This document shows, one piece after another, positions 3,371-18,263 of a stretch of DNA of 32,923 nt. This DNA comes from Bdellovibrionota bacterium. Its GTDB lineage: Bacteria > Bdellovibrionota_C > UBA2361 > JBIKWN01. The stretch spans positions 1 to 32,923 of the forward strand of contig JBIKWN010000023.1 in assembly GCA_044356295.1 (NCBI GenBank), read 5' to 3'. A program made the position numbers and the translations under genes. Under the pieces are notes generated by a model that did no database searches, was not told the origin of the DNA, and worked only from the letters and a program-made list of their open reading frames with translations. Positions within the stretch are counted from its first letter, which is position 1; each line of letters opens with the position of its first letter.

Positions 3371-4837
3371 CTAACTTTCAGGTTTTAACTGCGGAAACAG
3401 CAAAACGTCCCTAATAGTTTGACAGTTCGTAAGCAGCATCACCAGACGGTCAATACCGATCCCCTCTCCTGCTGTTGGTGGTAACCCAATTTCAAGGGCT
3501 TTCAAGAAATCTTCGTCTACATCAGAAGCCTCTTCATCACCTTTCTCTTTTCTTGCAGCTTGGGCTTCAAAACGTTCACGCTGATCTTGGGCATCATTAA
3601 GCTCTGAGAAAGCATTCGCTATCTCCATTCCCGCGATGATGAGCTCAAATCTATCAGTAACCTCAGGGTCGCCTTTGGTTCTGCGAGCAAGTGGAGATAT
3701 CGAATACGGATGATGAGTAATAAATGTTGGATTAATACATTTTGGTTCAACAAGCTCACCCCAAAGGGCTTCGAGGCATCGTCCCCAATCATTTTTATCA
3801 TTGAGTTGAATTTTATGTTCAGCTGCAACTTTATGGATTGAAGCTAAATCTCGCAGATTGACCTCTTTAGAAACCCCACCGATAACATGGATACTTTCCT
3901 GCATTGAAAGCCGTGGCCATGGACCTTTGAAATCTACGGTTTCTTCACAGTACTGAATCTGTAAAGAATCATTCACTAACAAACAAAGACTTGTTAGTAA
4001 CTCTTCAGTCAGATTCATGAGGTCATGAAACGTTGCATAGGCTTGATAAAACTCAATCGAAGTAAATTCAGGATTATGTTTTTTTGAAAGTCCTTCATTA
4101 CGAAAAATTCGTCCGATCTCGTAGACCCTATCAAGACCACCAACCACAAGTTTTTTTAGTGGAAGCTCTGTAGCGATACGTAGATACATATCAACACCAA
4201 GAGCATTATGATGAGTTTTAAACGGTTTAGCTGTTGCTCCTCCTGCAATACTTTGAAGCGTTGGTGTATCAACTTCTAAGTAATTACGAGAATCTAAAAA
4301 GGTTCGGATAGCAGTAATAATTTTAGCTCGTTTTCTAAAAATTTCTCGCCCTTCATAGTTTGAGATGAGATCTAGATATCGATGTCTGTATCGACTTTCA
4401 ACATCGGTAAGCCCCGCCCATTTCTCTGGAAGAGTATGAAGCGCTTTTGTTAGTAACCGAATTTTTTCAACATGCAGAGTTTTTTCACCTGTTTTCGTAA
4501 CAAACAAAAATCCGTGTGCTTCTACAATGTCACCTAGATCATAGGTTTTAAACTGTTCGAACGCTTCATCACCAATATCATCTTTTCTGACATATATTTG
4601 AAACTTCGTCGAAGTATCAAGGAGGTGACAAAATGAGGCTTTCCCCATTAATCGAAAATTCACTATTCGCCCAGCAACCGAAAAGTATTGCTTTGTATCA
4701 GGGGTAAACTCAGTAGCTAAAATCTCGCTTCCAAGCGCTGTAACTTTGACATCATTAGGGTAGTCAAAGCCATTAGCTCGCAGCTGTTCAAGTTTTTCAA
4801 AACGGACTTTTTCAAAGGTATTTAATTCTTCACTCAC
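3371..4837 (-). CDS. lysS: Lysine--tRNA ligase (class II)
   Basis: OB anticodon-binding domain, [39 protein letters not shown]. Confidence 0.98.
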
Positions 4838-5021
4838 ACGGTAGAGATTAAAGCAAAGAGGCGGGAAAGAAAACTATTTGAAATTATTGCTAATTTTGAT
4901 TTTTCTTTACCATAAAAACTTACTCCAACACGAGCTAACCCTTCGAAATAACGTATGAATATTCATATAAATAAATATTGAAATTTTAGACTAAGAATTA
5001 GAAGGTGCGTATCATAAAGCA

Positions 5022-6989
5022 ATGCGATTTCTCCCAGTTACAGACCAGACTAAATCAAACCCTAATACTGCTTTAGAACAGACTCAGAGCGATGACATAG
5101 CTTCATTAACGCTTCCCGAACGACTAGCTAAAGTATTAACAGTACCTTTCAATGAAATACTTCCAACAGTTCAGGGTAAGGAAATAAAAGCTCCGATCGG
5201 TGCTAAAAGCGCAGATGCATTTTCCAAAAATGAAAGTCTCCCCAAATTATTTGGGAAACTTGTTATAGATTTAGCAGCAACGGACCCTAAATTATTTACT
5301 GCCCGTTTCGGTGTTGCTGTACTCTCTGCTTTTTCATGGATTGCACTTGCAAAAGCAGGAAGTACTTTTACCCATGCCTTAGCTGTCTCTGATGCAGTAA
5401 AAGGTTTTCCATTTACAGAATCATTCCAAGCAATGGGGGTTGGCGCGCTAGCAGTTATTATTAAAAAATCACAAGATTTTCTTGCTCTTGAGCATGATAA
5501 AAACATTCAAAAATATACTTTTTCAAAAATCTTAAATCTTGTCACAGGTGTTCCTGCTCATCTCATTCGTGATAAAAAATTAAGTAAAGCATTAGATGAT
5601 TTGAAACGTCATGAATTCTCATTGAAGGAACTTTCGAAAGCTAGTTTTGGAATGGTGCAAGCAGCACTAATGGCAACGATTGCCGGTATTGCATTGGCTA
5701 CTAAAAATCCCCTCCTTACTTTTATCTGTATTGGTGGTCCTGCGATACTGATGCTTATCAATCAACAAAGAGCTGCAAAACGAAACCAAGAAGCTTTTGA
5801 TAGTACGTCCCTCGATCAAAGACAAGTAAACTACGGTCGCCAAACCGCATTTAAACCTCAAGCTCTAGAGATGCTCAAATCTTTTGGAACCGTTGGCAAA
5901 TATGTTAAGGGAATAGCTGATCGAGCATCAAGAATCGAAGATACCAAACATAAAGCATCAAAAAAGAATTTTTATGAAGGCTTACTGTCAACCTCAATGT
6001 TAGAAGGTGCTGGCCTTGTGGGGGGTGGACTCTATGCAGCGCTTACGATGCCATTCACTCAATTTTTATACACCACATTTTTAATTAAAGCCGCACAGAG
6101 TGCTGTAACATTATTTTCAGATAATACAGGTGTTATTCTTGAAAAACTTGATGCTGTAAAACTATTTAATGGTTTAGCTGACCACATCGGTACATTAAAG
6201 GGTGAAAAAGTTGATGTAAATCTTACAGCGGCACCTGAAATCAAAATTAAAAATTTATCGTTTACCTATCCTGGCAAAAAAAATCCTGCGCTTGAGGTTC
6301 AAGACCTTACGATACCGAAAGGTGCCAAAGTTTATGTCTGTGGACCAAGTGGAGCCGGCAAAACGACACTTGTAAAACTCATTGCTGGATACCTCGTACC
6401 TCAAGAAGGTTCGATTCTTGTAGGTGACTTTGATACAAGAACAAATTTTGTTCATTGTGCAATCGTTCCACAGGATGGTGAGGATTTTATTGGAGCTCGA
6501 TTCAGAGACATAATCGAACTTGGAAGTACAAACGAATCTACAAGAACTTTTCATGACGCAGCCCAATTAGCAGGATTCGACCAAATACTTAGAGACATGG
6601 GTGAAAAATCACAATCTGATATTCCAGGTTCAGAGCACATTCATGGTGGTTCATTTCCGCATGGTACCGATCTGTCGGGTGGACAAAAACAAAGATTAAA
6701 AATAGCTATGGCAGCATATAGTGGTGCTCCACTTATGTTTCTTGATGAACCGTGTGCTGGACTGGATATTGATGCAACAAATGCTATTAAAAATACACTG
6801 AACGGATTCAAAGGTGAAACAACAGTCATTCACGTTGAACATAATGCAAGTGCAGGGACTGATGCAGACTTAATCATCGTCGTAGAGGAAGGAAAAATTT
6901 CTGATATAGGCACTCATGATGAGCTTATGCGCCTCGGTAATAACTACTATTCACATTCATATAACGAGCAAAAAGCTCAATTTATATAA
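5022..6989 (+). CDS. ABC exporter, fused permease and ATP-binding domain (divergent)
   Basis: N-terminal TM segments; Walker A GPSGAGKT, signature LSGGQ, Walker B LMFLDEP, H-loop VEH, GTHDELM tail. Confidence 0.88.
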   Translation: MRFLPVTDQTKSNPNTALEQTQSDDIASLTLPERLAKVLTVPFNEILPTVQGKEIKAPIGAKSADAFSKNESLPKLFGKLVIDLAATDPKLFTARFGVAVLSAFSWIALAKAGSTFTHALAVSDAVKGFPFTESFQAMGVGALAVIIKKSQDFLALEHDKNIQKYTFSKILNLVTGVPAHLIRDKKLSKALDDLKRHEFSLKELSKASFGMVQAALMATIAGIALATKNPLLTFICIGGPAILMLINQQRAAKRNQEAFDSTSLDQRQVNYGRQTAFKPQALEMLKSFGTVGKYVKGIADRASRIEDTKHKASKKNFYEGLLSTSMLEGAGLVGGGLYAALTMPFTQFLYTTFLIKAAQSAVTLFSDNTGVILEKLDAVKLFNGLADHIGTLKGEKVDVNLTAAPEIKIKNLSFTYPGKKNPALEVQDLTIPKGAKVYVCGPSGAGKTTLVKLIAGYLVPQEGSILVGDFDTRTNFVHCAIVPQDGEDFIGARFRDIIELGSTNESTRTFHDAAQLAGFDQILRDMGEKSQSDIPGSEHIHGGSFPHGTDLSGGQKQRLKIAMAAYSGAPLMFLDEPCAGLDIDATNAIKNTLNGFKGETTVIHVEHNASAGTDADLIIVVEEGKISDIGTHDELMRLGNNYYSHSYNEQKAQFI

Positions 6990-6998
6990 TCTCTAGAG

Positions 6999-8309
6999 TT
7001 ACTCATTTATGAAAGCTTTATTCTGAAGTTCTTCAGGTGCACTTTGACATGCGCCGGCGTAGGCACAGTTTGAACATATCGTAGCCATTCCCTTTTTCGA
7101 CATTCTTGCATCATCCCAATGTGTCAAAAAATCTTCTTGATTGAATGTTATTTCACCATCATGAATGGTAAATGCTTTTCTGAGCTCTCTTACGTTATCT
7201 TCAATCTGTAAACTCACTAAGTTTAATGAAGCGCTATCAAACGCAATTACCGTCGTACGTTCTTCAAGACTTAATGATGCATCAGGAGAAGTATAGACAA
7301 ATTTCGCTTCAATATCTGCTGGCGTAAGATCCTTGTGTTTTTGCATCATGTAGTGAGAATAGATTCCACCCTGTAATGCATGTTTACTTATCAAAAACGG
7401 GCTTAGTCTTCTTTCATTTCTGTCCAGTCGCATTGCACCAGTTTTCCAGTCATAGATTTCCAATCGTCTATCACCTTCTATAGGAATATTTTCAGTTGAA
7501 TGAAAATATGAAAAATCGATGCCTGCATAAATTGTTACAGGAATTCCATCTACTTCTTGTAAAAAAGTTGGTACAGATTGGACTTCATAATCTTCATCCA
7601 GTTCGACATCCGCCCAATATTCAGGAGAAACGGATCCTTTTATAATTTGAGGGATAAAAATATCACGATAAAAAATCGTTAGTGAGTTTCTAATTTTTTC
7701 CTCCGCCTCAAGAAACTTTTCATCAAAATGCATCTGGCGAAAGCGGTTTTCAAATTGATGCTCAATTAATCTGAAATGTTGGGCGGAATCCCGAAATGTT
7801 GCTCCGTGACTTAGCGACACTTCTCGGTATGTTCGAAATCTTTTAATTGCTTCTTCAATAACATCTTCAAACTGAAGATTATTATTTGTTACTGATTCTT
7901 TTATCGCACTGTACACTGGATCTTTATAATCAGGGCTCGCAACTGCTCGGGTATAATCTCTCCAAACAAACAATGAATGAGCGATAATATTATGAACTAA
8001 TGTACCAACGAGTAGTGGCAAGGAATTTAAACTTTTACCTCTGGATATATATTTTGTAAGTTCATCTGCCTCTGGATGGTCGGCACCATACGATGCTGGT
8101 CCACCAAAATACCATGATTGCCTTTGACATAATGGCTCTGCTCTTGAAAATGACCAGCTACTTTTATAACTTTCAATGCCATCAATCCGGTACTCGTCAA
8201 GACTTTTGCCTTCGAAACGAGAAGACACACGAAGAGGACGAACATATTGAGGACCAATGACATGTCCAAATTCATTATTCTCTTGATTTTTATTAAGATC
8301 TACGTTCAT
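6999..8309 (-). CDS. PD-(D/E)xK nuclease, Cas4/AddB/RecB-like, probably Fe-S binding
   Basis: SFS...CQRQ (first Cys), GTLVHNII, AGIDF (motif II), IYDWKTG (motif III), QGGIY, C-terminal CSNCAYAGAC (CxxC-x5-C). Confidence 0.85.
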   Translation of the reverse strand: MNVDLNKNQENNEFGHVIGPQYVRPLRVSSRFEGKSLDEYRIDGIESYKSSWSFSRAEPLCQRQSWYFGGPASYGADHPEADELTKYISRGKSLNSLPLLVGTLVHNIIAHSLFVWRDYTRAVASPDYKDPVYSAIKESVTNNNLQFEDVIEEAIKRFRTYREVSLSHGATFRDSAQHFRLIEHQFENRFRQMHFDEKFLEAEEKIRNSLTIFYRDIFIPQIIKGSVSPEYWADVELDEDYEVQSVPTFLQEVDGIPVTIYAGIDFSYFHSTENIPIEGDRRLEIYDWKTGAMRLDRNERRLSPFLISKHALQGGIYSHYMMQKHKDLTPADIEAKFVYTSPDASLSLEERTTVIAFDSASLNLVSLQIEDNVRELRKAFTIHDGEITFNQEDFLTHWDDARMSKKGMATICSNCAYAGACQSAPEELQNKAFINE

Positions 8310-9553
8310 GGCTTTTTCTCGGTTACGACGCCAGCTATTGAATAATTATCTTGGTACGGATCAGTATCAACAAGAATACTAAATGGTGTTCCTCTTTTTG
8401 TTTCTTCTGTAATTAATCCTAAAATATTTTCAGGACATTGAAAGGTGCATTTCTCGCCAGACTTTCCAATCAGTTCTACTTTCAGACAGGCAGCATCAAT
8501 TTTATTCACAACAAGTGCAGGAATAATCGCTATCGGTGCTCTGCGACCTTTTCCAAAGAAATGATATCGTTTAAGTGATTCTTTCATCTGATGATGAAGT
8601 TCATTTAGACTACAAACAATTGTTGGAGATGGCATAGCGTCTGTTTGAAGTGTAACAGTCATGTCGCGCAATGCGTTAAAAAGAATTTTACTTCGTTCAA
8701 GGTTAGTTTCATTAAAAAACGACACAACCTTGGCAGACTCTCCAGCTATTACCGCATAAGCAACTACTTCGGCGATTTGTTTCAGAAGATAAAAGTTCTC
8801 TACCTCTTTTCCGAGTGAGGATTTTACAGATTGAATCCACACTGGAGCCGACTTCATATTAGTATTTAATATTCGTAAAGATGCTTCAATAAAAGATCCA
8901 GAAACTTCATCAATTTTTCTTGTTGAGGATAAAATTCCCAATGCTCCACATAGTATTGATGTTGAGTCAGATACTTTTAACGATTGAGGAATTGTTTTTT
9001 GGCGGAATTTATTTATTGCAGACTTTTCGGCAAGCGATAGTATTTCTGTATTATTTTGGCGAAGTCTATACCCATCATCTTTCTGCGAAAATGCAATCTG
9101 ATTGTTTGTTGTACCTATGATTCCCGTAAATGTCTTGCTCGGTGCTTCGAAAAAACTACCACTATAATGAGCTATAAAGATATTTGGATCTAACTGTGAC
9201 TTTTCAATATCATCCATAAAAAGCACAAGCACCCGTAACTGCTTTTGCTGCCAATTTTGACACTCATGGTAAAGAGCAAATAAAGCATCAGCAGATTTTT
9301 CAACAACGAGAACAATATCTCTTTGCTCAGCAATTACTTTTCTTATGGAATCTTGTGATAAAGAAGTTCTGAAATTGGGAAACTTAAGTTCTGGTGGGCA
9401 TGCAAACGCATCGGGAAGAGAAACTCCGTTTAGAGCTTGCTGTATTCTGATATCAACGGGAGATCCAAAATTTCCCGTTTTTAAGTAATACTCTATGGTT
9501 TGTTGTAAATCTTCAGTCCAATTATGAACAGAAGACGGAGCAAGGACACTCAT
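8306..9553 (-). CDS. Hypothetical protein (415 aa), middle gene of the helicase/nuclease operon
   Basis: Long ORF; starts 1 nt after the upstream stop and overlaps the downstream start (ATGA at 8306-8309); no recognisable catalytic motif. Confidence 0.75.
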   Translation of the reverse strand: MSVLAPSSVHNWTEDLQQTIEYYLKTGNFGSPVDIRIQQALNGVSLPDAFACPPELKFPNFRTSLSQDSIRKVIAEQRDIVLVVEKSADALFALYHECQNWQQKQLRVLVLFMDDIEKSQLDPNIFIAHYSGSFFEAPSKTFTGIIGTTNNQIAFSQKDDGYRLRQNNTEILSLAEKSAINKFRQKTIPQSLKVSDSTSILCGALGILSSTRKIDEVSGSFIEASLRILNTNMKSAPVWIQSVKSSLGKEVENFYLLKQIAEVVAYAVIAGESAKVVSFFNETNLERSKILFNALRDMTVTLQTDAMPSPTIVCSLNELHHQMKESLKRYHFFGKGRRAPIAIIPALVVNKIDAACLKVELIGKSGEKCTFQCPENILGLITEETKRGTPFSILVDTDPYQDNYSIAGVVTEKKP

Positions 9554-9554
9554 G

Positions 9555-12500
9555 TTAATCTTTCCTCCTCATCTTATACCTACCAATCAACGCAGCTCTC
9601 TCTTCAAAAGATCCGGCCGAAAATATAACGTACCGAACAGGAAGTCTTCGTTCTCCTTTTTCTCTTCCAGCTCTACCAGCATACTGTTTCTGCTCAATAA
9701 AACTGGAAAGTGGAGAGAATTCAATTACCATTCCTACGGTTGTATCATGTCCTTTTAAGAGTGCACTTGTTCCAACGACCCACGTTATTTCATCATTATG
9801 AAGTTTGGTGAGCGCTTCTTTGATTAAGGATTTTTCATTTTCTTTTTTAATATGGTTTCCACCGATTCCTGCAGAACAAACCTCTCTGCCGAAAAACATA
9901 TTTAATCTTTCTGCTAGAAATCGCGCGTGCTCAGTTGTTTGAGTGTAGATCATTCCCTTTCTATTTGGAGTTTCAATAGAATCCCTGAATAACGTCTTTA
10001 AAAGGATACTTTCTTTAGGGTGATCGATATGTTCTTTTTGTAAGAGCTTTGTTCTGATGGTATCAAGATCTAGTGGCTTTAAAGTACATAAATCCTCCAG
10101 TGTAATAGTTCCCGCAGGGGTATTATTACAAACAAGGCTTAGGGCATGTCGACACATCGGATCAAGTAATAGATATGCCCATGGATCTTTATGTATCGAA
10201 AGTTCTTTTAGGGTTAGCTGCCTTCCTTTAAATCCTCTTTCACTCATAAACTCGATCCACTCTGAGTGATACGTATTAATTTTTTCTATCGTACACCAAA
10301 CACCACGAGAAATTAGTTCATCTCTAATTTGAAGGGCAATATGAGCGGATTTTAAATATAAAAAGCTCTCGTAGTCTCCTTCTCCAGCTAACCCAGCTAT
10401 TGCTTTGCCAATGACTCCGGCAGGGATTTTTTCGGATCGCTTTAGTTGAGTCCTCAATTTTGTGGGTCTTGAAAATCTATCACGAGTTTTCTTGCCAGGA
10501 TTGTATTCTTTATCTAAGAGCCAATCAGGAAGTTCAGATAACTTCATGTGAGCATAGCTCGATAACTTCAAGTCGACGGTAGCAAAATCTGAAGATAACT
10601 GAACTGGAATCGGTACATATCTGATCGATTTTTGTCCTTTACTCATGTAGGTATCAAAAAGCTTCAAGTCTTTCATGAGTCTTTGACGACCATCATTTTG
10701 ATTTTCAGAAGGTGTAGCATCAAGGAGCGTAAAAGGAACACCCTGCATAAATGTTTGGTGCGCTATAGAAATTAAAGAGTGTCCTTCAGATGGAAGAAAT
10801 GTTTGGATACGCCTCTCTCTTCTACCAACTTCACTTCCGCCTTCATCTGCAATGACATGATCAGTATTCTTAAGAATAATTCTTCCGGACTGAATATCAT
10901 TCCGGAATGTTTGGTACGTCATAACGTAGAGCGTTGAAACTGATTTTTGTTTTTCATATATTTTTGATCGTTTTTCTGGGGTTATTTTTCCACCCATCGC
11001 GATAATTGACCCTTCAGGAATTGTTGTATATTCAAGTGCCTGATTTTTCACCTGCGCAATCAAGGACTGCGTCGGAACTAAGTGATACTGGTTTCCTCCT
11101 CGGTCAAGGACTCGTCCAAATATTCCAAATGATACAAAAGTTTTTCCGCCATTGGTGTCCATCCAAATAAGCGTTCGCGGTTGACGACAAGCAAATTCAA
11201 TTGCATTAGCCTGTCTCGGTCGGAAAGAGATCTTATCCTTACGAAAAACTCCTTTGGTATATTCGTGAAACTGTTCGGATGTGTCAATTTTTTCATCCCT
11301 AAAATCAAGTGCTTCATTTTGAGGAACTAAAAGTTTCCTACGATTTTGTTTTATTTTATTTATGGTATTAGGAGACTGTTCTTTTTTTGAAAATAATTTT
11401 ACATTATTTCTATTTAATTGATGATCATAAGGTGGTGCCAGTGATCCATCGCCGCTTCGTCCAGGAATAGCAAAATTACTATCTGGATCGAATCCCCCAT
11501 TTATATAAAATGCGAGCTTACCAGTCTCGACGCCAACCAAATTGGTAAATGAACGTAGTAAATCAGGGTCGCCAAGATCATAGGTACCAACGACAACTGT
11601 TTTCATCGCCTCATTAAAGGAATCTTGTGGAACAGAAAAGTGAAGTTCATCAAGCATCTTATCTAGTCTTTGATGAAGCACTTCTTGATTAGATTGAGGC
11701 AGATTAGACCAAAGGCTACTTAAAAGTTCTTTAATTGACGACCGAGTAACCAAGTCAATTTGAGATTCTGAAACATCTCCATATTTGCCACTATACCGCT
11801 CACCCCACTCTACTTTTTCTTTTACTATTTCAATCAACTTATTGAGTCGCGCTATTTGTGGAAGGAGGTCGTCTCTTTTTTCTCGCAATCCTTCCACATA
11901 ATGTTGATCACATGAAGCAAGCTGTTCCATTAAATCTTCTAATGAAAATTTATCTAATTGATCATCTGTAAGATCGCATGATTGTCTTTGAAAAGATGGA
12001 GAAATAATAATATCTTTATGCTCTGCGATAGAAGCAAGATACCCTCTAAGATCCAATGTAGAATCTAGTTGAAGTTCATTACTATATGTTCCCAAAAACT
12101 GTAGGGCATCATCTAACTTAGAAAATTCTGCTTTTTCTAATACTGCTATTGCTTTATGTGCTTCTGCTTCATTACTAGCACTTTTATGAATTAATAGTCT
12201 CGCCTGCCGAGAGGATATTTCGATTTCTTGATGAATTATTGAAGCAGATCCATGCATCCCTTCATACGATAATGCTCCGGTAGCAAGTTTTCGTGAAATT
12301 GCTGCTTGAATTTTTCGTCTTCTAAGTAATGAATCACTTAATGATCCTGTATATTGTGCATCAAGCTGCTTTGAAACTGTATCTATATCCTCCATCAGAT
12401 TATCAAGCGTATCTGGGATTGCTTCAAATGCTGTATCAGAGATCTTATCTTGTTCTTGGTAAATAATTCGTAGCGTTTCACAGTCAGCAACCATGTATTC

Positions 12501-14345
12501 TATGTTGCCACTTGCAGTAGGTCGTATGTCCCAGTTTTTTCTTGGTAAGCTTTTATTTAATGATCTTCCATAGGGATCCAAGAGCTTGAATTGATTATCA
12601 AGACTGTGTCCTGGCAGGCATGGAAGATAACCTCGACTAAAAACTGCAGTATCATAAGCCCCAACACCGTGTCCAACGAAATGTCCAAAGAATACATTAT
12701 TTTCAAAGGGATGATTCTGCTCAACGATTACTTTTGAAGGGTCTCTAAAGAGTGTATTTAATTTCGATATATCGAGTGGATGAAACATATCAAAGAGATA
12801 GGTAACTTTTTCATTTTCTCCAAGTATCTGGATGAAACTTGATCGAAGACTTCCATTGACTGAGACATTTTCTGAATCGACAAAGATAAAATCTTCTTTT
12901 ACTAGTGAATCGATTGCGTCATCAGCTTCGTTTTGAGACACAATCATGCGGTAAGGGAATTCGGTACTAAATTGATTTTCTAAGGGCTCAACCGGAGTAT
13001 CAGGACGAGGAGGTCGAAATAATGGACAAAATGCTTTTATAACAAAGACTGGGGGACCTTCACCAGAACGTCTAATCTTTCCAATAAAAGCACCCCTTTT
13101 CCCAGGATCAAGTTCAGGAACTGAGTACGTACAATGAGCCAGTGCGGAAATGACTCTGCCATTTACTCTCAGTTTTAACTTGGTACTACCACTCGACAAA
13201 AGTTGTGAGCCAGCAATGATGCAATCAGGAATTAAATAGACTGTATCCCGATGTAATGTAGAAAAATCAGTTACTGATAAATCGACGATAGGAAAATCAC
13301 TAAAAATGCTCGATACAGTTCCGTCAAGTTTGACAATTGGTGATAATCCATCAAGGTGATGTTTTAAATGATGTACGCCTTGTTGGCTATTTGTACATCG
13401 TGAAAAAAGGGAATTTTCATCACCAAACAAAGCACCCTTCATAAGGTCCCACTTTGTCTCATCAGTAAATAATTCAAACGATGATGGCTTAGTCGAATAA
13501 ACCGACTTAACTCTTATAGAGTTTTTTATAAGTAACAATCTTAGATCATTTGAAAGTGGAAGTTGGAGTTGATCTTTACCTTCAATATGTTCAGCTAATT
13601 CAGATACAATTGATCCTAATTCTTTATAAGCATTAAAAAAAACAAACCCAAAAGGTGTCCATGTAACACATACGTTGCCTTCGGGCATGACGCCAAATAA
13701 TTTGTAGATCTGTTCATTTGAAAATTCCTTTACTGTGCCATCCGTACCACTAAGTTCCGGAATTTTTTCTACTAATTTTTTATAAGCAGATACTCGTTCA
13801 TTGACAATACATCCAAGGACAAACGTTATCTCCTCAACAGGTGGATGATTAGTGAAAAAGTCTACATCCCTCGTTACAGCATGCTTTATCCCGGAATGAA
13901 TTCTTTGAGGTAGAATATCAGAAATTCGAGATTGATGATTCTTACGACTGATGCCCTGCATTATCTTTGTAAGAGCATCTTCTACCTCTGAATGTACTTT
14001 TACTGTTTTTTTCCGTTGATCAGCTATTTTTAGAATCAATAATTTTTGTGGGTGATCTAAGTTAAGCTCAGCAGGAAATTTTTTATCTAGAAACGATCTT
14101 GTTTTTGCATCCCATGGTTTTGAAAAAATGTAATCTTTCTGTTCCTTAGATAAGGATTGAATAATATTTTTTCCAATTTCTATCAGATCGCTCTTGATAC
14201 TTCTTACATCAATTAAATCAGAGATATCCCAATTCTTTGATGGCTGGGAAGGAAGAGCGCCAAGTACAACGCCAACATCAGGTCGTAGCTGAAATTGATC
14301 AGAAAAGGGTAAATGAGGTTGTTGATCAACCTTGGATTTTCGCAT
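9555..14345 (-). CDS. Large fusion of an RNase D-like DEDDy 3'-5' exonuclease and a Hef/Mph1-like SF2 helicase
   Basis: Exonuclease motifs FVDSE, QNHPFE, YDT, WDIRP, YMVAD. Helicase motifs RPRQ, DTNGGKT, LVPTQSL, TYQTFRND, IADEG, DATP, HPK, MIYTQT, GTSALLKGHD, QYAGRAGR. Confidence 0.8.
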   Translation of the reverse strand: MRKSKVDQQPHLPFSDQFQLRPDVGVVLGALPSQPSKNWDISDLIDVRSIKSDLIEIGKNIIQSLSKEQKDYIFSKPWDAKTRSFLDKKFPAELNLDHPQKLLILKIADQRKKTVKVHSEVEDALTKIMQGISRKNHQSRISDILPQRIHSGIKHAVTRDVDFFTNHPPVEEITFVLGCIVNERVSAYKKLVEKIPELSGTDGTVKEFSNEQIYKLFGVMPEGNVCVTWTPFGFVFFNAYKELGSIVSELAEHIEGKDQLQLPLSNDLRLLLIKNSIRVKSVYSTKPSSFELFTDETKWDLMKGALFGDENSLFSRCTNSQQGVHHLKHHLDGLSPIVKLDGTVSSIFSDFPIVDLSVTDFSTLHRDTVYLIPDCIIAGSQLLSSGSTKLKLRVNGRVISALAHCTYSVPELDPGKRGAFIGKIRRSGEGPPVFVIKAFCPLFRPPRPDTPVEPLENQFSTEFPYRMIVSQNEADDAIDSLVKEDFIFVDSENVSVNGSLRSSFIQILGENEKVTYLFDMFHPLDISKLNTLFRDPSKVIVEQNHPFENNVFFGHFVGHGVGAYDTAVFSRGYLPCLPGHSLDNQFKLLDPYGRSLNKSLPRKNWDIRPTASGNIEYMVADCETLRIIYQEQDKISDTAFEAIPDTLDNLMEDIDTVSKQLDAQYTGSLSDSLLRRRKIQAAISRKLATGALSYEGMHGSASIIHQEIEISSRQARLLIHKSASNEAEAHKAIAVLEKAEFSKLDDALQFLGTYSNELQLDSTLDLRGYLASIAEHKDIIISPSFQRQSCDLTDDQLDKFSLEDLMEQLASCDQHYVEGLREKRDDLLPQIARLNKLIEIVKEKVEWGERYSGKYGDVSESQIDLVTRSSIKELLSSLWSNLPQSNQEVLHQRLDKMLDELHFSVPQDSFNEAMKTVVVGTYDLGDPDLLRSFTNLVGVETGKLAFYINGGFDPDSNFAIPGRSGDGSLAPPYDHQLNRNNVKLFSKKEQSPNTINKIKQNRRKLLVPQNEALDFRDEKIDTSEQFHEYTKGVFRKDKISFRPRQANAIEFACRQPRTLIWMDTNGGKTFVSFGIFGRVLDRGGNQYHLVPTQSLIAQVKNQALEYTTIPEGSIIAMGGKITPEKRSKIYEKQKSVSTLYVMTYQTFRNDIQSGRIILKNTDHVIADEGGSEVGRRERRIQTFLPSEGHSLISIAHQTFMQGVPFTLLDATPSENQNDGRQRLMKDLKLFDTYMSKGQKSIRYVPIPVQLSSDFATVDLKLSSYAHMKLSELPDWLLDKEYNPGKKTRDRFSRPTKLRTQLKRSEKIPAGVIGKAIAGLAGEGDYESFLYLKSAHIALQIRDELISRGVWCTIEKINTYHSEWIEFMSERGFKGRQLTLKELSIHKDPWAYLLLDPMCRHALSLVCNNTPAGTITLEDLCTLKPLDLDTIRTKLLQKEHIDHPKESILLKTLFRDSIETPNRKGMIYTQTTEHARFLAERLNMFFGREVCSAGIGGNHIKKENEKSLIKEALTKLHNDEITWVVGTSALLKGHDTTVGMVIEFSPLSSFIEQKQYAGRAGREKGERRLPVRYVIFSAGSFEERAALIGRYKMRRKD

Positions 14346-14392
14346 TTTTTAATGGCGTTTATTGAAATTTTGCAAATAATTACAGACACATA

Positions 14393-14420
14393 ATTATACT
14401 TTGTATACCGTCTTACTCAA
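14393..14420 (-). promoter_or_regulatory. Putative sigma70 promoter of the helicase/nuclease operon
   Basis: Minus strand reads TTGAGT-16 nt-TATAAT, ending 47 nt upstream of the ATG at 14345; an ACTCA-N9-TGAGT inverted pair (14415-14433) overlaps the -35. Confidence 0.55.
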
Positions 14421-14578
14421 ATTTATTATGAGTTGAAATCAGGCAACTCTTTATCTTTAAAAATGTCTAAAAAATGGGGAAATTGTTCATTTTTGAGTTT
14501 TCTATTCGATTAAGACTCTCTACTTTTTGGGGATCAGATCAACTATTGGATGTATGACTGTTTATCCCATGTATGGCT

Positions 14579-15073
14579 TTACCTCGGAGAGTCTGTTCGC
14601 CATGAACTAGGCTGGCATGAAATAACTGGAGCTGTACGCTTACGAGAGGAAGAATTCAATCCACAACGATCAAAGTTATGTGGAGGATTATATACACCAT
14701 AACAGGTTTTGTTATCCTTTCTAGTAAAGGCAAAATGACGTGTGCCATTCTCGCACCCTGAGGTCACATTGAAGGTAAAAGTGGCTTTTTTGCCGGCTTT
14801 GATTTTTTTACTTCCACGCCACCTGACACTGTAGGGAAGGGTGATATAAATATCCCCAAAAGTTTTTTGTACAGTGCTCGCATGAACTTTAGTAATTGTT
14901 ATGTCTCCTGCATCTTTTGGGACTTTATAGGTAACTTGGCAAGGGCAAGCACACGCCTCGCTTACTATAGCTGAAAAGATTACAAAGGAGAGAAAAACTG
15001 AAGCTATTTTCACAAGAACCCCTACTGACAAATAAAAAATAAATCGCCGGACATTTAAGGTCTTGAGTACCAT
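14579..15073 (-). CDS. Hypothetical exported Cys-rich protein (start may be GTG at 15013)
   Basis: Signal-peptide-like KIASVFLSFVIFSAIVSEACA followed by a beta-rich mature region with several Cys. Confidence 0.6.
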   Translation of the reverse strand: MVLKTLNVRRFIFYLSVGVLVKIASVFLSFVIFSAIVSEACACPCQVTYKVPKDAGDITITKVHASTVQKTFGDIYITLPYSVRWRGSKKIKAGKKATFTFNVTSGCENGTRHFAFTRKDNKTCYGVYNPPHNFDRCGLNSSSRKRTAPVISCQPSSWRTDSPR

Positions 15074-15216
15074 ATTTCTGCACTAAACTGAAACAATATC
15101 TTGCCTCCGCTACGAAAAGCATTATGACCAGTGAGTGTTATTGAGAGGAACGAAAAGTGAGCTGTATTTCGCGGATTTAATTTGAATACCATCCGAACCT
15201 AGGTTAGCTTTAACCC

Positions 15217-16392
15217 ATGCAGTTGAACCTTAAACAGGTAGAGTTACCTATATCGAGTTATTCTTTTGAGCCCCATGAAGTTTTTCCTTCTGGATTAGAT
15301 ACTGGCTTTGTATCTACACGAAAAGCTACCTTCGATACGCTTGGTGAAGGAAATCCTGATGATTTTAGCTTTAGTTACATCCTTTATCCTTATAAAAGAG
15401 ACCCCCAAACAGGTGTTGTAAATATAGGTTCAAATAAAATTCCAATTTGTTCATATCAAGGTAAAAAATTCCTAAGTAGAACTCCAATAGATTATAGAGG
15501 TGATTCGCTCCTCTTTTCGGAAGTTACAATTGATACATTAGGAAGGACACCTCACACACAAAGATTTGGTGTTATGCGACTAACTGAATCAGGCGCCGAA
15601 TTAACAGATATTTCCTATTTACAAGAGGGTCGAATCCCTTTTCAAATGATTACTAGAGATTCTGTTTTTACTGTTGCTCAGTCATTTGCTAGTGGATTAC
15701 CCGAGACGCATCCCGACCCTCAAATATTAGTTTTAGGAGACAATGAAGATCGATTATCTCTGAAAGAAAAATTTGCTGGTCTTTTAGGCTCACTTGCATC
15801 TCTACCTCTCGCATTTAGCCCTGGACCAATCTCTGAGTATGGACTCTTTCTTGGTATAGACCCAGAAAATTCTGATCAACTAGGATATTTTATTCAAGAT
15901 CGAAAAAGTGAACGATTCTTTTTGCATGGATATATTCCCCCATTTGATGAGGAAACGATGCCCAATAAACATTGCATTAATGAAGACGGAATAGTGGTCG
16001 GACTTTATCTCGACAGCGATGACAGTTCTTTTCATCCCATGACTTGGAATCGTTATGGATATACACAGGCTCTGAGGATTCCAGAAAATCACAAAGGAAG
16101 TGAAATATACATCACTGGGATAACAAGTATATTTATTGCTGGTGAAAAATATAGTTTTGTATCTGCTGAATTTGTAGATCACACGAGTCGCTCTTCTCCC
16201 TATGGGTGGATTATCGATGATAATTTCTTTGGAGAAGGTTTTGCTGCGACTCCATTTCCATTAGATTTTCAAGATGCAATCCCATCTCAATTAAAATCAG
16301 TACACCAAGGTGGTATTACTTTATTACAGTATGAAAATTTTCCAGGAAAAGTCTCTACGGGAATATTTTCACCAACGATGGTATCGTTATAA
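15217..16392 (+). CDS. Hypothetical protein, possibly beta-propeller-like
   Basis: 391-aa ORF; INEDGIVVG and ITGIT segments resemble HAF-type repeats. Confidence 0.6.
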   Translation: MQLNLKQVELPISSYSFEPHEVFPSGLDTGFVSTRKATFDTLGEGNPDDFSFSYILYPYKRDPQTGVVNIGSNKIPICSYQGKKFLSRTPIDYRGDSLLFSEVTIDTLGRTPHTQRFGVMRLTESGAELTDISYLQEGRIPFQMITRDSVFTVAQSFASGLPETHPDPQILVLGDNEDRLSLKEKFAGLLGSLASLPLAFSPGPISEYGLFLGIDPENSDQLGYFIQDRKSERFFLHGYIPPFDEETMPNKHCINEDGIVVGLYLDSDDSSFHPMTWNRYGYTQALRIPENHKGSEIYITGITSIFIAGEKYSFVSAEFVDHTSRSSPYGWIIDDNFFGEGFAATPFPLDFQDAIPSQLKSVHQGGITLLQYENFPGKVSTGIFSPTMVSL

Positions 16393-16403
16393 AAATCAAC
16401 AGT

Positions 16404-17522
16404 TCAAAGATATTTCTTAAGATGAGCTGTCATCCGATCAACGATACTTTCTCGTGATGAATGCACTTCATGATCACCAAGCAAAACGATAAATTCAGCT
16501 TCAGGAAATAGCTTTCTTCCTTCCTTAATATCCTCTACTGGAATTACTGAATCAGATGCCATGGTAATCATCTGAACATCTTTGGAATCTGTTTTAGAAA
16601 CTCTTCCAATTGGGGAATGAACTGACAGTGCCTGACGCAAAAGGCTAGGATCGATTTCTGTATTTGCTTCTCTTTTTAACGCAGCCTCAGTTACGGTTGA
16701 CATATCAAAGAACGGTAAAAGATTCACTATAAATGACAAAGGTTCAATCGTAGACCAAAGTGTTGTTAGATAGGAACCAAGGCTTATTCCAAATGCCCCA
16801 AATTTTTTCAATCCAAGGGCTCTAAGGATTAACTTTAGTTGCCGTAGGTCAGAAACACCTTGCAAAATTGCTTCATTCGTTAAAAAAAGATTTGCACTTG
16901 GAAACACGGAGTGCCCAATATCTCGAAATTCACTGGTAAGCCTTCTTCCATGAAATGGAAGTTCGAAAATTGCGACATTAAATCCTAAGCGGAAAAAGAA
17001 ACCAGGCATAAATGTCAGTGCATTAATTTTTTGATCCCCCATTGTCCAACCTGGAACAGCAATCATTGTAGGACGGTTTTCATTATGAGTATGCTTCCAG
17101 AGTCTCACGCGAACCGTTTTATTTTCTGGAATTGCAACGTGGATTTTTTTATTAGATGAATGTATCGGTTGATATGAACTTTCAAACTCAATATCGACAA
17201 TTTCTCCATCTGCTGATAATCCATGAACTGGAATTACCTTTGGAGCGAATACTCCTTTTGGCGATATAAATGGCTCTTTTATAGTGGAATAGAATGCTGC
17301 CGTTGATCTGAGTGCTTCATTAGAGAGCCCTGCAATCAGTGGAGCAAAATTCAGAGGTACTGCATCTGTTGTAATTCTAGAAAAAAATTTCTCGAGCTCC
17401 TCGCCACCTTGTAAGGTCAAACGCTCAACGCTACTAAGCCGTGCTGCCTTGTCATCTGAAAGGTGACAGAAATCCTCAAAATCGGTGAATTGCTTTCCCA
17501 CTGTCTCTGATCTATCGGTCAA
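16404..17522 (-). CDS. Alpha/beta hydrolase
   Basis: Nucleophile elbow GISLG, ELPFHGRR, Asp in DSVIP, His in GDH. Confidence 0.85.
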   Translation of the reverse strand: MTDRSETVGKQFTDFEDFCHLSDDKAARLSSVERLTLQGGEELEKFFSRITTDAVPLNFAPLIAGLSNEALRSTAAFYSTIKEPFISPKGVFAPKVIPVHGLSADGEIVDIEFESSYQPIHSSNKKIHVAIPENKTVRVRLWKHTHNENRPTMIAVPGWTMGDQKINALTFMPGFFFRLGFNVAIFELPFHGRRLTSEFRDIGHSVFPSANLFLTNEAILQGVSDLRQLKLILRALGLKKFGAFGISLGSYLTTLWSTIEPLSFIVNLLPFFDMSTVTEAALKREANTEIDPSLLRQALSVHSPIGRVSKTDSKDVQMITMASDSVIPVEDIKEGRKLFPEAEFIVLLGDHEVHSSRESIVDRMTAHLKKYL

Positions 17523-17659
17523 AAAGAGAGAAGTATTAATATAATTAAAGGTTTTCTACGAAAATTTCTGAGAAAACGTTTTTTTCATGGATTTTCGTTT
17601 ACTTGCCCCTCATACGAGTCATCTGCGACAATCAAATGAGTATTTCTAAATATGTAACA

Positions 17660-17896
17660 ATGAACGAAGAAACTAAAAAAAGATCAAAAGATCCACTCGA
17701 GGGAGTCACCCTCGAAATGCTACTGACGGAACTGGTCGAGAACGTAGGATGGCAAAAACTCGGGAAGCAGATCTCTATCAATTGCTTTAATAGCGATCCA
17801 AGTATTTCATCGAGTCTAAAATTTCTGAGACGTACTCCATGGGCAAGAACTAAAGTTGAAAAATTCTACTTAGATTATTTGAAATCTAAAAAATAA
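17660..17896 (+). CDS. VF530 (DUF2132) family putative DNA-binding protein
   Basis: DPLEGVTLE..GW..L...I.INCF..DPSISSSLKFLRRTPWARTKVE family signature; ATG at 17660 preferred over TTG at 17603. Confidence 0.9.
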   Translation: MNEETKKRSKDPLEGVTLEMLLTELVENVGWQKLGKQISINCFNSDPSISSSLKFLRRTPWARTKVEKFYLDYLKSKK

Positions 17897-17906
17897 GTTA
17901 AAACGT

Positions 17907-18263
17907 ATGAACAATTACCGTTTAGTCTATTCAACCGATCCGAAGCTCAATAAAAAATGTCCGAAGTGTTCTGAACTTCTGGCTTCTTGTAATTGTGCAG
18001 ATGAATCGAAATTACCTGAGCGAATTTCAACACGTCTACAAATTGAAAAAGCTAAACGTGGTGGAAAAACTGTTACTGTTTTAAAAGAACTTCCTAAAGT
18101 GAATGAATTTTTAAAAAGCCTTTGTAAGGAATTAAAAAATTCTTGTGGTACTGGTGGGACATTTGGAATTTCTGATGTTGAAGGGTATATCGAGATTCAG
18201 GGTGATTTTCGGGAGAAGATTCGAGACATACTTAAAAAGAAAAACTATCTAGTGAAAGGTTAA
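17907..18263 (+). CDS. yciH: Translation initiation factor SUI1/eIF1 homolog YciH
   Basis: LVYSTD, CxxC...CxC, RGGKTVT, LK..CG.GGT, IEIQGD. Confidence 0.92.
   Translation: MNNYRLVYSTDPKLNKKCPKCSELLASCNCADESKLPERISTRLQIEKAKRGGKTVTVLKELPKVNEFLKSLCKELKNSCGTGGTFGISDVEGYIEIQGDFREKIRDILKKKNYLVKG

Follow-up and report, generated by a model that had tools for sequence, protein, structure and literature searches.

A gene triad of a Bdellovibrionota bacterium that appears to be a diverged form of a recurrent Hef-like helicase-RecJ module

Overview of the triad

Contig JBIKWN010000023.1 of the Bdellovibrionota bacterium assembly GCA_044356295.1 was analysed over its full length of 32,923 nucleotides (nt). 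This stretch is called the window, and positions refer to it unless a locus is named. On its minus strand it carries three tightly packed genes, which we call the triad. Gene A (9555..14345) codes for a fusion of a DEDDy exonuclease with a Hef-like helicase of superfamily 2 (SF2), with a length of 1596 amino acids (aa). Gene B (8306..9553) codes for a degenerate RecJ-like protein of 415 aa (DHH/DHHA1/OB) that is devoid of catalytic motifs, and gene C (6999..8309) for a 436-aa Cas4-like PD-(D/E)xK nuclease with a four-Cys signature of the iron-sulfur (Fe-S) type. As judged by sequence comparison, the triad is a diverged, partly fused form of a module of Hef-like helicase and RecJ that recurs in related genomes. 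With the module of the relatives as reference, it can be described as an exonuclease-helicase-RecJ operon which has probably undergone three changes: the first two genes have been fused, the RecJ has been inactivated and a Cas4-like nuclease has been appended. We assign a probability of roughly 45% to the proposal that A, B and C constitute one helicase-nuclease complex which processes DNA ends or forks. For this complex we infer formation, strand polarities, substrate and cellular role.

The helicase-RecJ module in related genomes

When 31 related genomes were searched for RecJ, the housekeeping gene was found in all of them, and a second RecJ, scoring below threshold, in seven (G002, G006, G017, G018, G019, G022, G029). 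In G002, which belongs to the same genus as the source genome, overlapping genes code for a DEDDy exonuclease of 740 aa, a helicase of 630 aa and a RecJ paralogue of 597 aa. There is an exonuclease (599 aa), a helicase (652 aa) and a RecJ (611 aa) in G019, a helicase (664 aa) and a RecJ (595 aa) in G029, and a helicase (695 aa) and an exonuclease (663 aa) in G006. The helicase gene of G022 (674 aa) is convergent with that of RecJ (646 aa), and in G018 and G017 RecJ and helicase are joined in single proteins of 1271 and 1251 aa. At the seven second-RecJ loci that were annotated, the best NCBIfam match of the helicases is Hef.

RecJ-helicase fusions occur in a total of 15 of the 124 related genomes. 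These include proteins of 1036-1462 aa with BLAST matches to both parts (G058, G062, G066, G067, G073, G089) and same-frame fusions recognized by their coordinates (G053, G055, G057, G069, G075, G077, G078). Genes for fusions of 1250-1460 aa are located at L058:6465-10415, L059:7964-12229, L060:1499-5881, L061:6484-10224, L062:2124-6299, L063:6317-10219, L051:3877-7692 and L052:5202-8957. The fusion proteins carry a complete RecJ (DHH, DHHA1 and OB, with intact motifs) together with the Hef-like helicase, which is Rosetta-stone evidence for a joint action of the two parts. Fusion genes are often found in conserved housekeeping surroundings. In genus g8 they have housekeeping genes as neighbours, in shared synteny, namely acyl-CoA carboxylase in G058 and G066 and a Mur ligase in G062 and G067. 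Adjacent pairs of helicase and RecJ genes were also found in G043 and G085, and there are at least six such pairs overall. Taken more broadly, a Hef-like helicase is linked to a nuclease gene in at least 23 of 123 other genomes, with G006 and G036 included.

Members of the module have only 17-30% sequence identity among themselves. The helicase of A shows 17-21% identity to nine members in a ten-row alignment and 23% to the G022 helicase over 535 aa (E 7e-17), and is as close to the members as these are to each other. The gene order exonuclease, helicase, RecJ-like is common to the triad, G002 and G019. No module-helicase match at E 1e-10 was obtained in the Myxococcales-MAG (metagenome-assembled genome) phylum sample of 201 genomes, with six candidates scored per genome.

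A search of the full-text literature, with subscription-only papers and supplements outside its scope, turned up no account of a bacterial Hef-like helicase with a link to RecJ, of RecJ-helicase fusions or of the A-B-C triad. The helicase-RecJ gene family is thus apparently undescribed. Helicase-nuclease machines are already known as a kind; what is new is the chassis and the part list.

Protein A, a fusion of exonuclease and helicase

An earlier interpretation made from the DNA letters alone (the sequence-only reading) had assigned a DEDDy fold and a Hef-like SF2 helicase to A, and had considered the motor to be different from the superfamily 1 (SF1) type of AddAB and RecBCD. Both assignments were borne out. 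The exonuclease domain comprises residues 465-633 (12447..12953, minus strand), where DNA_pol_A_exo1 (PF01612) is matched at 465-631 in Pfam with E 1.3e-8. Its motifs (D490/E492, E548, D565, Y617/D621) are intact and can be aligned with their counterparts in the exonucleases of the relatives and in the genome's own RNase D-like protein. The linker which follows (residues 634-1030, 11256..12446, minus strand) is in part homologous to the C-terminal extension of the relatives' stand-alone exonucleases; BLASTP aligns A 546-898 with residues 337-693 of the G002 exonuclease, beyond the catalytic domain, at 22% identity and E 2.7e-5. The N-terminal region (residues 1-460, 12966..14345, minus strand) is without a match in Pfam, NCBIfam and PHROG and gave no usable match in the Atlas search.

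Residues 1031-1596 (9558..11255, minus strand) represent the SF2 helicase, which is assigned to the Hef/FANCM/RIG-I clade by Pfam, NCBIfam, the 1wp9 profile and its motifs. In Pfam, ResIII and DEAD are matched at 1039-1168 (E 7e-10 and 1.1e-7) and Helicase_C at 1452-1561 (E 5.3e-5). The motifs GGKT (K1068), DEGG (D1167/E1168), DATP and, at 1556, GRAGR (R1558/R1561) are intact. The two RecA lobes are separated by an insertion of ~270 aa, the second lobe is preceded by DHPK at 1441, and this motif as well as the insertion align with the relatives. Hef (NF010337) is the best NCBIfam match (E 1e-22, in two stretches); with 80 bits it stays below the whole-protein cut-off of 610, and no ERCC4 family is among the Pfam matches. 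In PHROGs, only helicase families are matched. The Pyrococcus Hef helicase 1wp9 is the only solved structure that is matched by A alone (E 2.2e-15), and a profile of ten sequences, consisting of A and the relatives' helicases, matches it with E 7.9e-76. Below it in the profile ranking are ancestral Dicer helicase, FANCM, LGP2, RIG-I, MDA5 and Dicer. RecQ (TIGR00614) reaches only E 0.081 on A, and the UvrD family is not matched by the helicase in Pfam, NCBIfam or the structure profile. By these matches, the helicase of A is closest to archaeal Hef.

The strong matches of the helicase profile to RIG-I, MDA5, LGP2 and Dicer also fit an RNA processing or surveillance complex, in which an RNase D-like exonuclease and a RIG-I/Dicer-clade helicase would work on structured RNA and the partner proteins would trim RNA or RNA-DNA hybrids. 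The exonucleases point the same way, as TIGR01388 (rnd) matches those of the relatives, and 39 of the 63 places matched by A within its order correspond to the exonuclease region, 38 of these being in open frames of ~220-420 aa. However, the top structural relative, Hef, is a DNA fork helicase, and the source genome has a separate RNase D-like gene. RecJ and the Fe-S nucleases of the Cas4/AddB type, for their part, are DNA enzymes. We consider a role on RNA to be improbable.

Protein B, a RecJ-like protein without catalytic motifs

B has no significant family in Pfam, where RecJ_OB is matched at residues 314-360 with E 0.08, and TIGR00644 finds only the housekeeping RecJ in the source genome but not B. 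In the ESM Atlas, every one of the ten best family-assigned feature neighbours of B is a DHH/RecJ cluster, with a score of 0.88 that stays below the mark of 0.9, and the Atlas model of B itself aligns to RecJ clusters with a TM of 0.46-0.47. A reference alignment was built from 30 housekeeping RecJ and six RecJ paralogues of related genomes. Against these 36 proteins, hhalign reports E 1.4e-4 at a probability of 53%, with B 164-362 and RecJ 346-541 being collinear. The score of 40.8 compares with a mean of 16.4 (standard deviation 2.7, maximum 27.7) for 150 shuffles and with 19.6 for the reversed sequence. In addition, BLASTP with B finds a RecJ-helicase fusion, in its OB part, at E 3.6e-4.

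In an L-INS-i alignment with the same 36 RecJ, which is uncertain at such a distance, B is collinear with RecJ and has QQALNG in place of DFDVDG, DDI in place of DHH and AGE in place of GGH. The motif IV segment of ~100 aa is deleted in this alignment. The sequence FGKGRRAP keeps the PFGxGNPxP signature that precedes the OB fold. The RecJ paralogues of the relatives retain every catalytic motif. The AlphaFold2 model of B, computed from the single sequence, has a pLDDT of 33. The evidence is weak but consistent that B is a remote RecJ derivative which is probably catalytically dead, and the plain unknown protein of the sequence-only reading is replaced by this description, to which the Atlas, hhalign with its shuffles, BLASTP and the alignment all contribute.

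Protein C, a Cas4-like nuclease

The PD-(D/E)xK fold which had been ascribed to C was confirmed by PDDEXK_1 (PF12705), matched in Pfam at residues 278-422 with E 5.1e-6, and by motifs that are intact (D265, D287-x-K289, Q313..Y317). Four cysteines, one N-terminal (C61) and three C-terminal (C412, C415, C421), complete the pattern. The catalytic residues and all four Cys are invariant across C, its relative P0004 and the relative in G036. We take D, DxK and QxxxY together with four Cys to be the RecB-like/Cas4/AddB pattern, and C is thus predicted to be a Cas4-like PD-(D/E)xK nuclease with an Fe-S cluster. It resembles Cas4 in the RecB-like D...DxK...QxxxY motif series and in the distribution of the Cys, but differs in its setting, as no cas family was matched in Pfam by the 25 other open reading frames (ORFs) of the window (CRISPR arrays were not specifically searched for). 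With 436 aa, C is longer than its distant metagenome relatives of ~300 aa.

Operon structure and integrity of the genes

The sequence-only reading had described three translationally coupled genes, and this holds. The A/B junction reads TAA-C-ATG, so that a single base (9554) lies between the genes, and AGGAGG is found 10 nt before the ATG of gene B. Stop and start codons overlap by 4 nt at the B/C junction (ATGA, 8306-8309). The stop codon of gene C is 9 nt away from that of a convergent ABC gene. The sigma-70-like promoter that had been proposed upstream of A is present as a site but not as a significant one. The candidate, TTGAGT-16-TATAAT (14393..14420, minus strand), matches at 10 of 12 positions and is located in the 233-bp intergenic region, 47 nt upstream of the ATG of gene A. 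Sites of this type are not enriched in the region (23, as compared to 26.8 +/- 5.2 in shuffles), and the candidate is therefore plausible but on its own not significant.

Triad DNA is also present in sequencing runs from lakes. One independent lake-water run, from another study, contains it almost completely (0.81 of the sampled words), and further lake runs contain it in part. Contigs of this independent run cover 30 of 30 bins of the range 4000-18000. Among the strain differences listed for three other runs, 11 of 15 in gene A, four of five in gene B and all three in the ABC gene are synonymous; 18 more differences exist beyond those listed, and the contigs are of low depth. Among the differences listed there are no indels within the genes; they occur only in the intergenic stretch 14445-14468. 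The sequencing runs listed as containing the triad do not include an RNA run. The triad genes are real, intact and under purifying selection, for which the evidence is good, though not exhaustive.

Two further observations were made in the lake data. In lake run X3, eight substitutions and four small indels are clustered within 60 bp (14409-14468), in a stretch that spans the candidate -35 box and the bases immediately upstream of it, while the flanking genes differ mostly synonymously. An apparent joint from 6704 to 7705 was discounted, since it consists of 21-letter sides of one foreign-looking contig.

Could A, B and C be chance neighbours which were brought together when the island was assembled and do not work jointly, or could B be a pseudogene-like remnant without a role? 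B is without a detectable homologue and has lost all catalytic motifs of RecJ, and at other loci the nucleases of the C type are solitary and their contexts unrelated. Yet the genes are separated by 1 nt or overlap by 4 nt, their order is that of the relatives' exonuclease-helicase-RecJ operons, and a C-like nuclease is paired with a Hef-like helicase in G036 as well. In addition, the frame of B is intact and the differences listed for it are, as given above, mostly synonymous. We regard such a fortuitous arrangement as very improbable.

Rarity of the triad proteins

In a word-indexed search of 5.8 billion clusters, B found only itself. A phmmer search of 1.84 billion representatives added only two weak, repeat-like matches in multiple stretches to residues 67-117, and among 41 related genomes B is confined to its own. 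For C there is one relative, P0004, on a 6.9-kb JGI contig (40% identity, 96% coverage), and 2 of the 124 genomes have C, its own and G036 (E 9e-5). No full-length relative of A was obtained in a word-based search, its cluster representative being a 114-aa fragment, and only domain-level matches exist in 91 genomes of the same order. The exact triad was found nowhere else in the collections searched. As a consequence, the assumption that C functions together with A and B is based on the operon structure and on the G036 locus. The sequence-only reading had raised the conservation of the triad as a question, and in the collections searched the exact triad is not conserved. The same reading had not recognized the combination as any named system; it is nevertheless not a one-off combination, as the related module recurs in relatives.

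A metagenome scan with C and P0004 was without a match, and a second one yielded 20 distant C-type nucleases of ~300 aa. No helicase neighbours of these were found among 36 ORFs annotated from ten loci. At two loci (L088:3486-5682, L074:440-2824), a distant C relative of ~305 aa is directly followed by a gene for a 320-aa DHH-DHHA1 protein (NrnA-like). This represents another pairing of PD-(D/E)xK and DHH proteins, and the organisms behind the two contigs may be related. A scan of a genome collection gave two matches in another frame, which were taken as chance.

A lineage-specific island and the possibility of defence

The triad is part of a lineage-specific island of ~11.5 kb (4885..16400), which contains, besides the triad, the ABC gene and two orphan ORFs. 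Synteny with G002 extends to window position 4884 and is resumed at 16407, and that with G001 extends to 4677 and is resumed at 16710. The island is missing at the syntenic site of both congeners. For housekeeping neighbours and aminoacyl-tRNA synthetases, identity is 88% with G002 and 73% with G001; as G002 is the nearer of the two, a single insertion is the more parsimonious explanation, compared to two losses. An origin from a mobile element is not supported, as the island has no tRNA, no flanking repeats and no integrase-like Pfam match; its GC content is flat. The module of G002 adjoins glycosyltransferase and ABC-2 genes, and the syntenic copy in the source genome (74% nt identity) lacks the module.

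This setting has to be considered together with the possibility that the triad is a dedicated anti-phage or anti-plasmid system. In such a system, A would sense or load onto invading DNA, C and the exonuclease would destroy it and B would act as adaptor or sensor. Combinations of a helicase and several nucleases are common among defence systems. The position of the triad within an insertion that both congeners lack fits, as does the finding that the congener G002 carries a different variant of the module elsewhere, at a locus where the source genome has none. The extreme sequence divergence, near the level of orphans, fits as well.

The comparison with known defence systems does not favour this possibility. 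PADLOC-DB v2.0.0 gave no system match: A matches PbeA and PsyrT at 29 bits through the helicase core only, B has no match, and C matches Aga_Cas4-like weakly (E 0.006-0.008). That no named defence system would be matched had been expected in the sequence-only reading and was found to be correct. Neither in the window nor at ~14 annotated related loci could defence, integrase or toxin-antitoxin genes be recognized. Phage (50,697 records), plasmid (72,556 records) and IMG/VR collections contain no relatives except for a single match, which is to the helicase core on a Salinibaculum plasmid. The fusion-type relatives reside between housekeeping genes with shared synteny, a context that speaks for the processing of DNA ends or forks. 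For the earlier proposal of a candidate defence or DNA-processing system, the accessory island setting is in favour, but the defence role lacks defence neighbours and a PADLOC match. We consider dedicated defence to be possible but rather unlikely.

A bolder version seems quite unlikely to us. The triad would be the first representative of a novel class of defence systems that degrade the DNA of invaders, carried on a mobile island and assembled from parts of archaeal and eukaryotic type, with the RecJ-helicase fusion family of these reportedly predatory bacteria as its housekeeping ancestor. A Hef/FANCM-type motor would be combined with a WRN-like exonuclease, a Dna2/Cas4-type Fe-S nuclease and a dead RecJ, and the latter might serve the helicase as Cdc45 serves CMG.

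Neighbouring genes

The ABC protein (5022..6989, plus strand; 655 aa) has an N-terminal half that is hydrophobic, together with an ABC ATPase domain, and its gene is convergent with gene C. Its best relative, with 29% identity over residues 81-643 (E 7.5e-56), is found in G036, where the ABC gene (L018:12395-14434) overlaps the start of the gene for the Hef-like helicase. This helicase gene in turn adjoins the phylum's only relative of C and a UvrD gene. The ABC type (~655-730 aa, with an N-terminal half that lacks a Pfam membrane domain) occurs in 10 of the 124 genomes. At five of five other loci examined (L066-L070), no module genes are found beside it. As an obligatory partner the ABC gene is thus unproven, and the protein is considered only as a possible fourth component.

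A Cys-rich ORF of 164 aa (14579..15073, minus strand), which has one hydrophobic segment at its N-terminal end, and a 391-aa orphan ORF (15217..16392, plus strand) have no family match. The earlier description of a setting among orphan genes applies to these two, which lack Pfam matches, but not to a 372-aa ORF that is conserved in the congeners.

Elsewhere in the window, the segment 17510-18395 (885 bp, with a SUI1/YciH gene at 17907-18263) corresponds to 237 bp in G002, which is a second small lineage-specific difference. A 133-aa protein, in which an Endonuc_Holl / VRR-NUC domain is matched with E 9e-16, is encoded at 964-1365, immediately downstream of a LolD/LolC-like pair of ABC genes.

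Proposed function

We propose that A, B and C form one ATP-driven machine that would act on DNA ends and on stalled or branched DNA. The Hef-type motor of A would unwind or remodel the DNA, the DEDDy domain fused to it would degrade the displaced 3'-ended strand, and C would degrade the 5' strand. B, through its DHHA1/OB remnant, would bind single-stranded DNA and the helicase as an adaptor, which we consider its most likely role. The Cas4-like nuclease would have been added with the same expected polarity as that of the decayed RecJ. Resection or degradation of linear DNA would serve repair, and could also destroy foreign linear DNA in the way of RecBCD. The machine would thereby take the place that AddAB/RecBCD, archaeal Hef-HAN or eukaryotic WRN-DNA2 have in other organisms. 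A physical association in this complex is suggested mainly by the RecJ-helicase fusions and has a precedent in the interaction of Hef with HAN. The complex predicted for the helicase part of A (ten-row alignment) with B has a score of 0.02, which has no bearing either way.

The source genome (93.6% complete) yielded no RecB above the cut-off and no RecC, and its only PD-(D/E)xK_1 proteins are C and one of 351 aa. RecC is found in 2 of the 124 genomes of the phylum sample, in one of these above the cut-off. PD-(D/E)xK proteins of the size of AddB (~900-1000 aa) occur widely in the sample, but G000 (the source genome), G001, G002 and G036 yielded none. The source genome appears to lack both RecBCD and AddAB. 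That the module and AddAB complement each other cannot be upheld as a rule and is only a hint, since several genomes have the module together with AddB-size proteins and several have neither.

These genomes also weigh against the proposed processing of DNA ends or forks, and they are not alone in doing so. The exact triad has no second occurrence in the collections searched, and 460 N-terminal residues of A are not accounted for by the proposal. The insertion of the island, the turnover of the module between congeners and the low identity among its members would all better fit an accessory or defence gene than a repair gene. An RNA substrate is conceivable as well, given the resemblance of the DEDDy domain to RNase D and the presence of RNA helicases in the helicase clade.

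Comparison with known systems

The triad shares with AddAB and RecBCD the combination of a motor with nucleases of both polarities, and the expected job, which is the resection or destruction of linear DNA. AddB carries a PD-(D/E)xK nuclease with an Fe-S cluster and has the same Cys pattern as C. The triad differs in its motor, which is of the SF2 Hef clade and not of the SF1 UvrD type, and in the 3'-5' activity, which would be provided by the DEDDy domain. Beyond the nuclease superfamily, no sequence relationship was detected.

WRN is a DEDDy exonuclease fused to a helicase, and acts in eukaryotic resection with DNA2, an Fe-S nuclease of the PD-(D/E)xK type. As in WRN, the exonuclease of A is N-terminal to the helicase in one chain, and its partner nuclease belongs to the iron-staple type of Cas4, AddB and Dna2. 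However, the helicase of A is not a RecQ and has neither RQC nor HRDC, and there is no orthology.

The Hef protein of Thermococcus kodakarensis, according to the accessible part of the report, binds and stimulates the RecJ-like nuclease HAN, and HAN's activity as a nuclease is needed (PMC5717133). The likeness consists of a Hef-type SF2 helicase with a partner of the RecJ/DHH family, Hef being the closest solved structure to the helicase of A. As differences, A lacks the ERCC4 nuclease domain of Hef and has a DEDDy exonuclease instead, B is without catalytic motifs, a Cas4-like nuclease has been added and the host is bacterial.

In DinG of Staphylococcus aureus, as in A, a 3'-5' exonuclease and an SF2 helicase are fused in a bacterial protein, and, as far as the accessible text goes, the exonuclease is N-terminal (PMC12345164). 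That helicase is of the XPD family, whereas A belongs to the Hef/FANCM clade and has two partner genes. The same trio of activities as in the triad is found in published work in which a helicase, a Cas4-like nuclease and a paralogue of RecJ each limit a foreign plasmid. The accessible part of that work does not give gene positions; its helicase is an SF1 UvrD, and an active RecJ paralogue can be presumed.

Helicases of the Hef/FANCM type have been studied as archaeal and eukaryotic fork-repair motors. The module points to a bacterial branch of this clade that is physically tied to RecJ-like nucleases and mirrors the archaeal partnership of Hef and HAN. The triad illustrates how such a module may be rebuilt, through the fusion of two genes, the loss of the RecJ active site and the recruitment of a Cas4-type nuclease. 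Should it act against phages or plasmids, it would be a new defence system. If A, B and C do form a complex, this would be an end-processing helicase-nuclease on an SF2 chassis, which may be of a new type, and B would offer a tractable case of a pseudo-nuclease that serves as a helicase accessory, like Cdc45.

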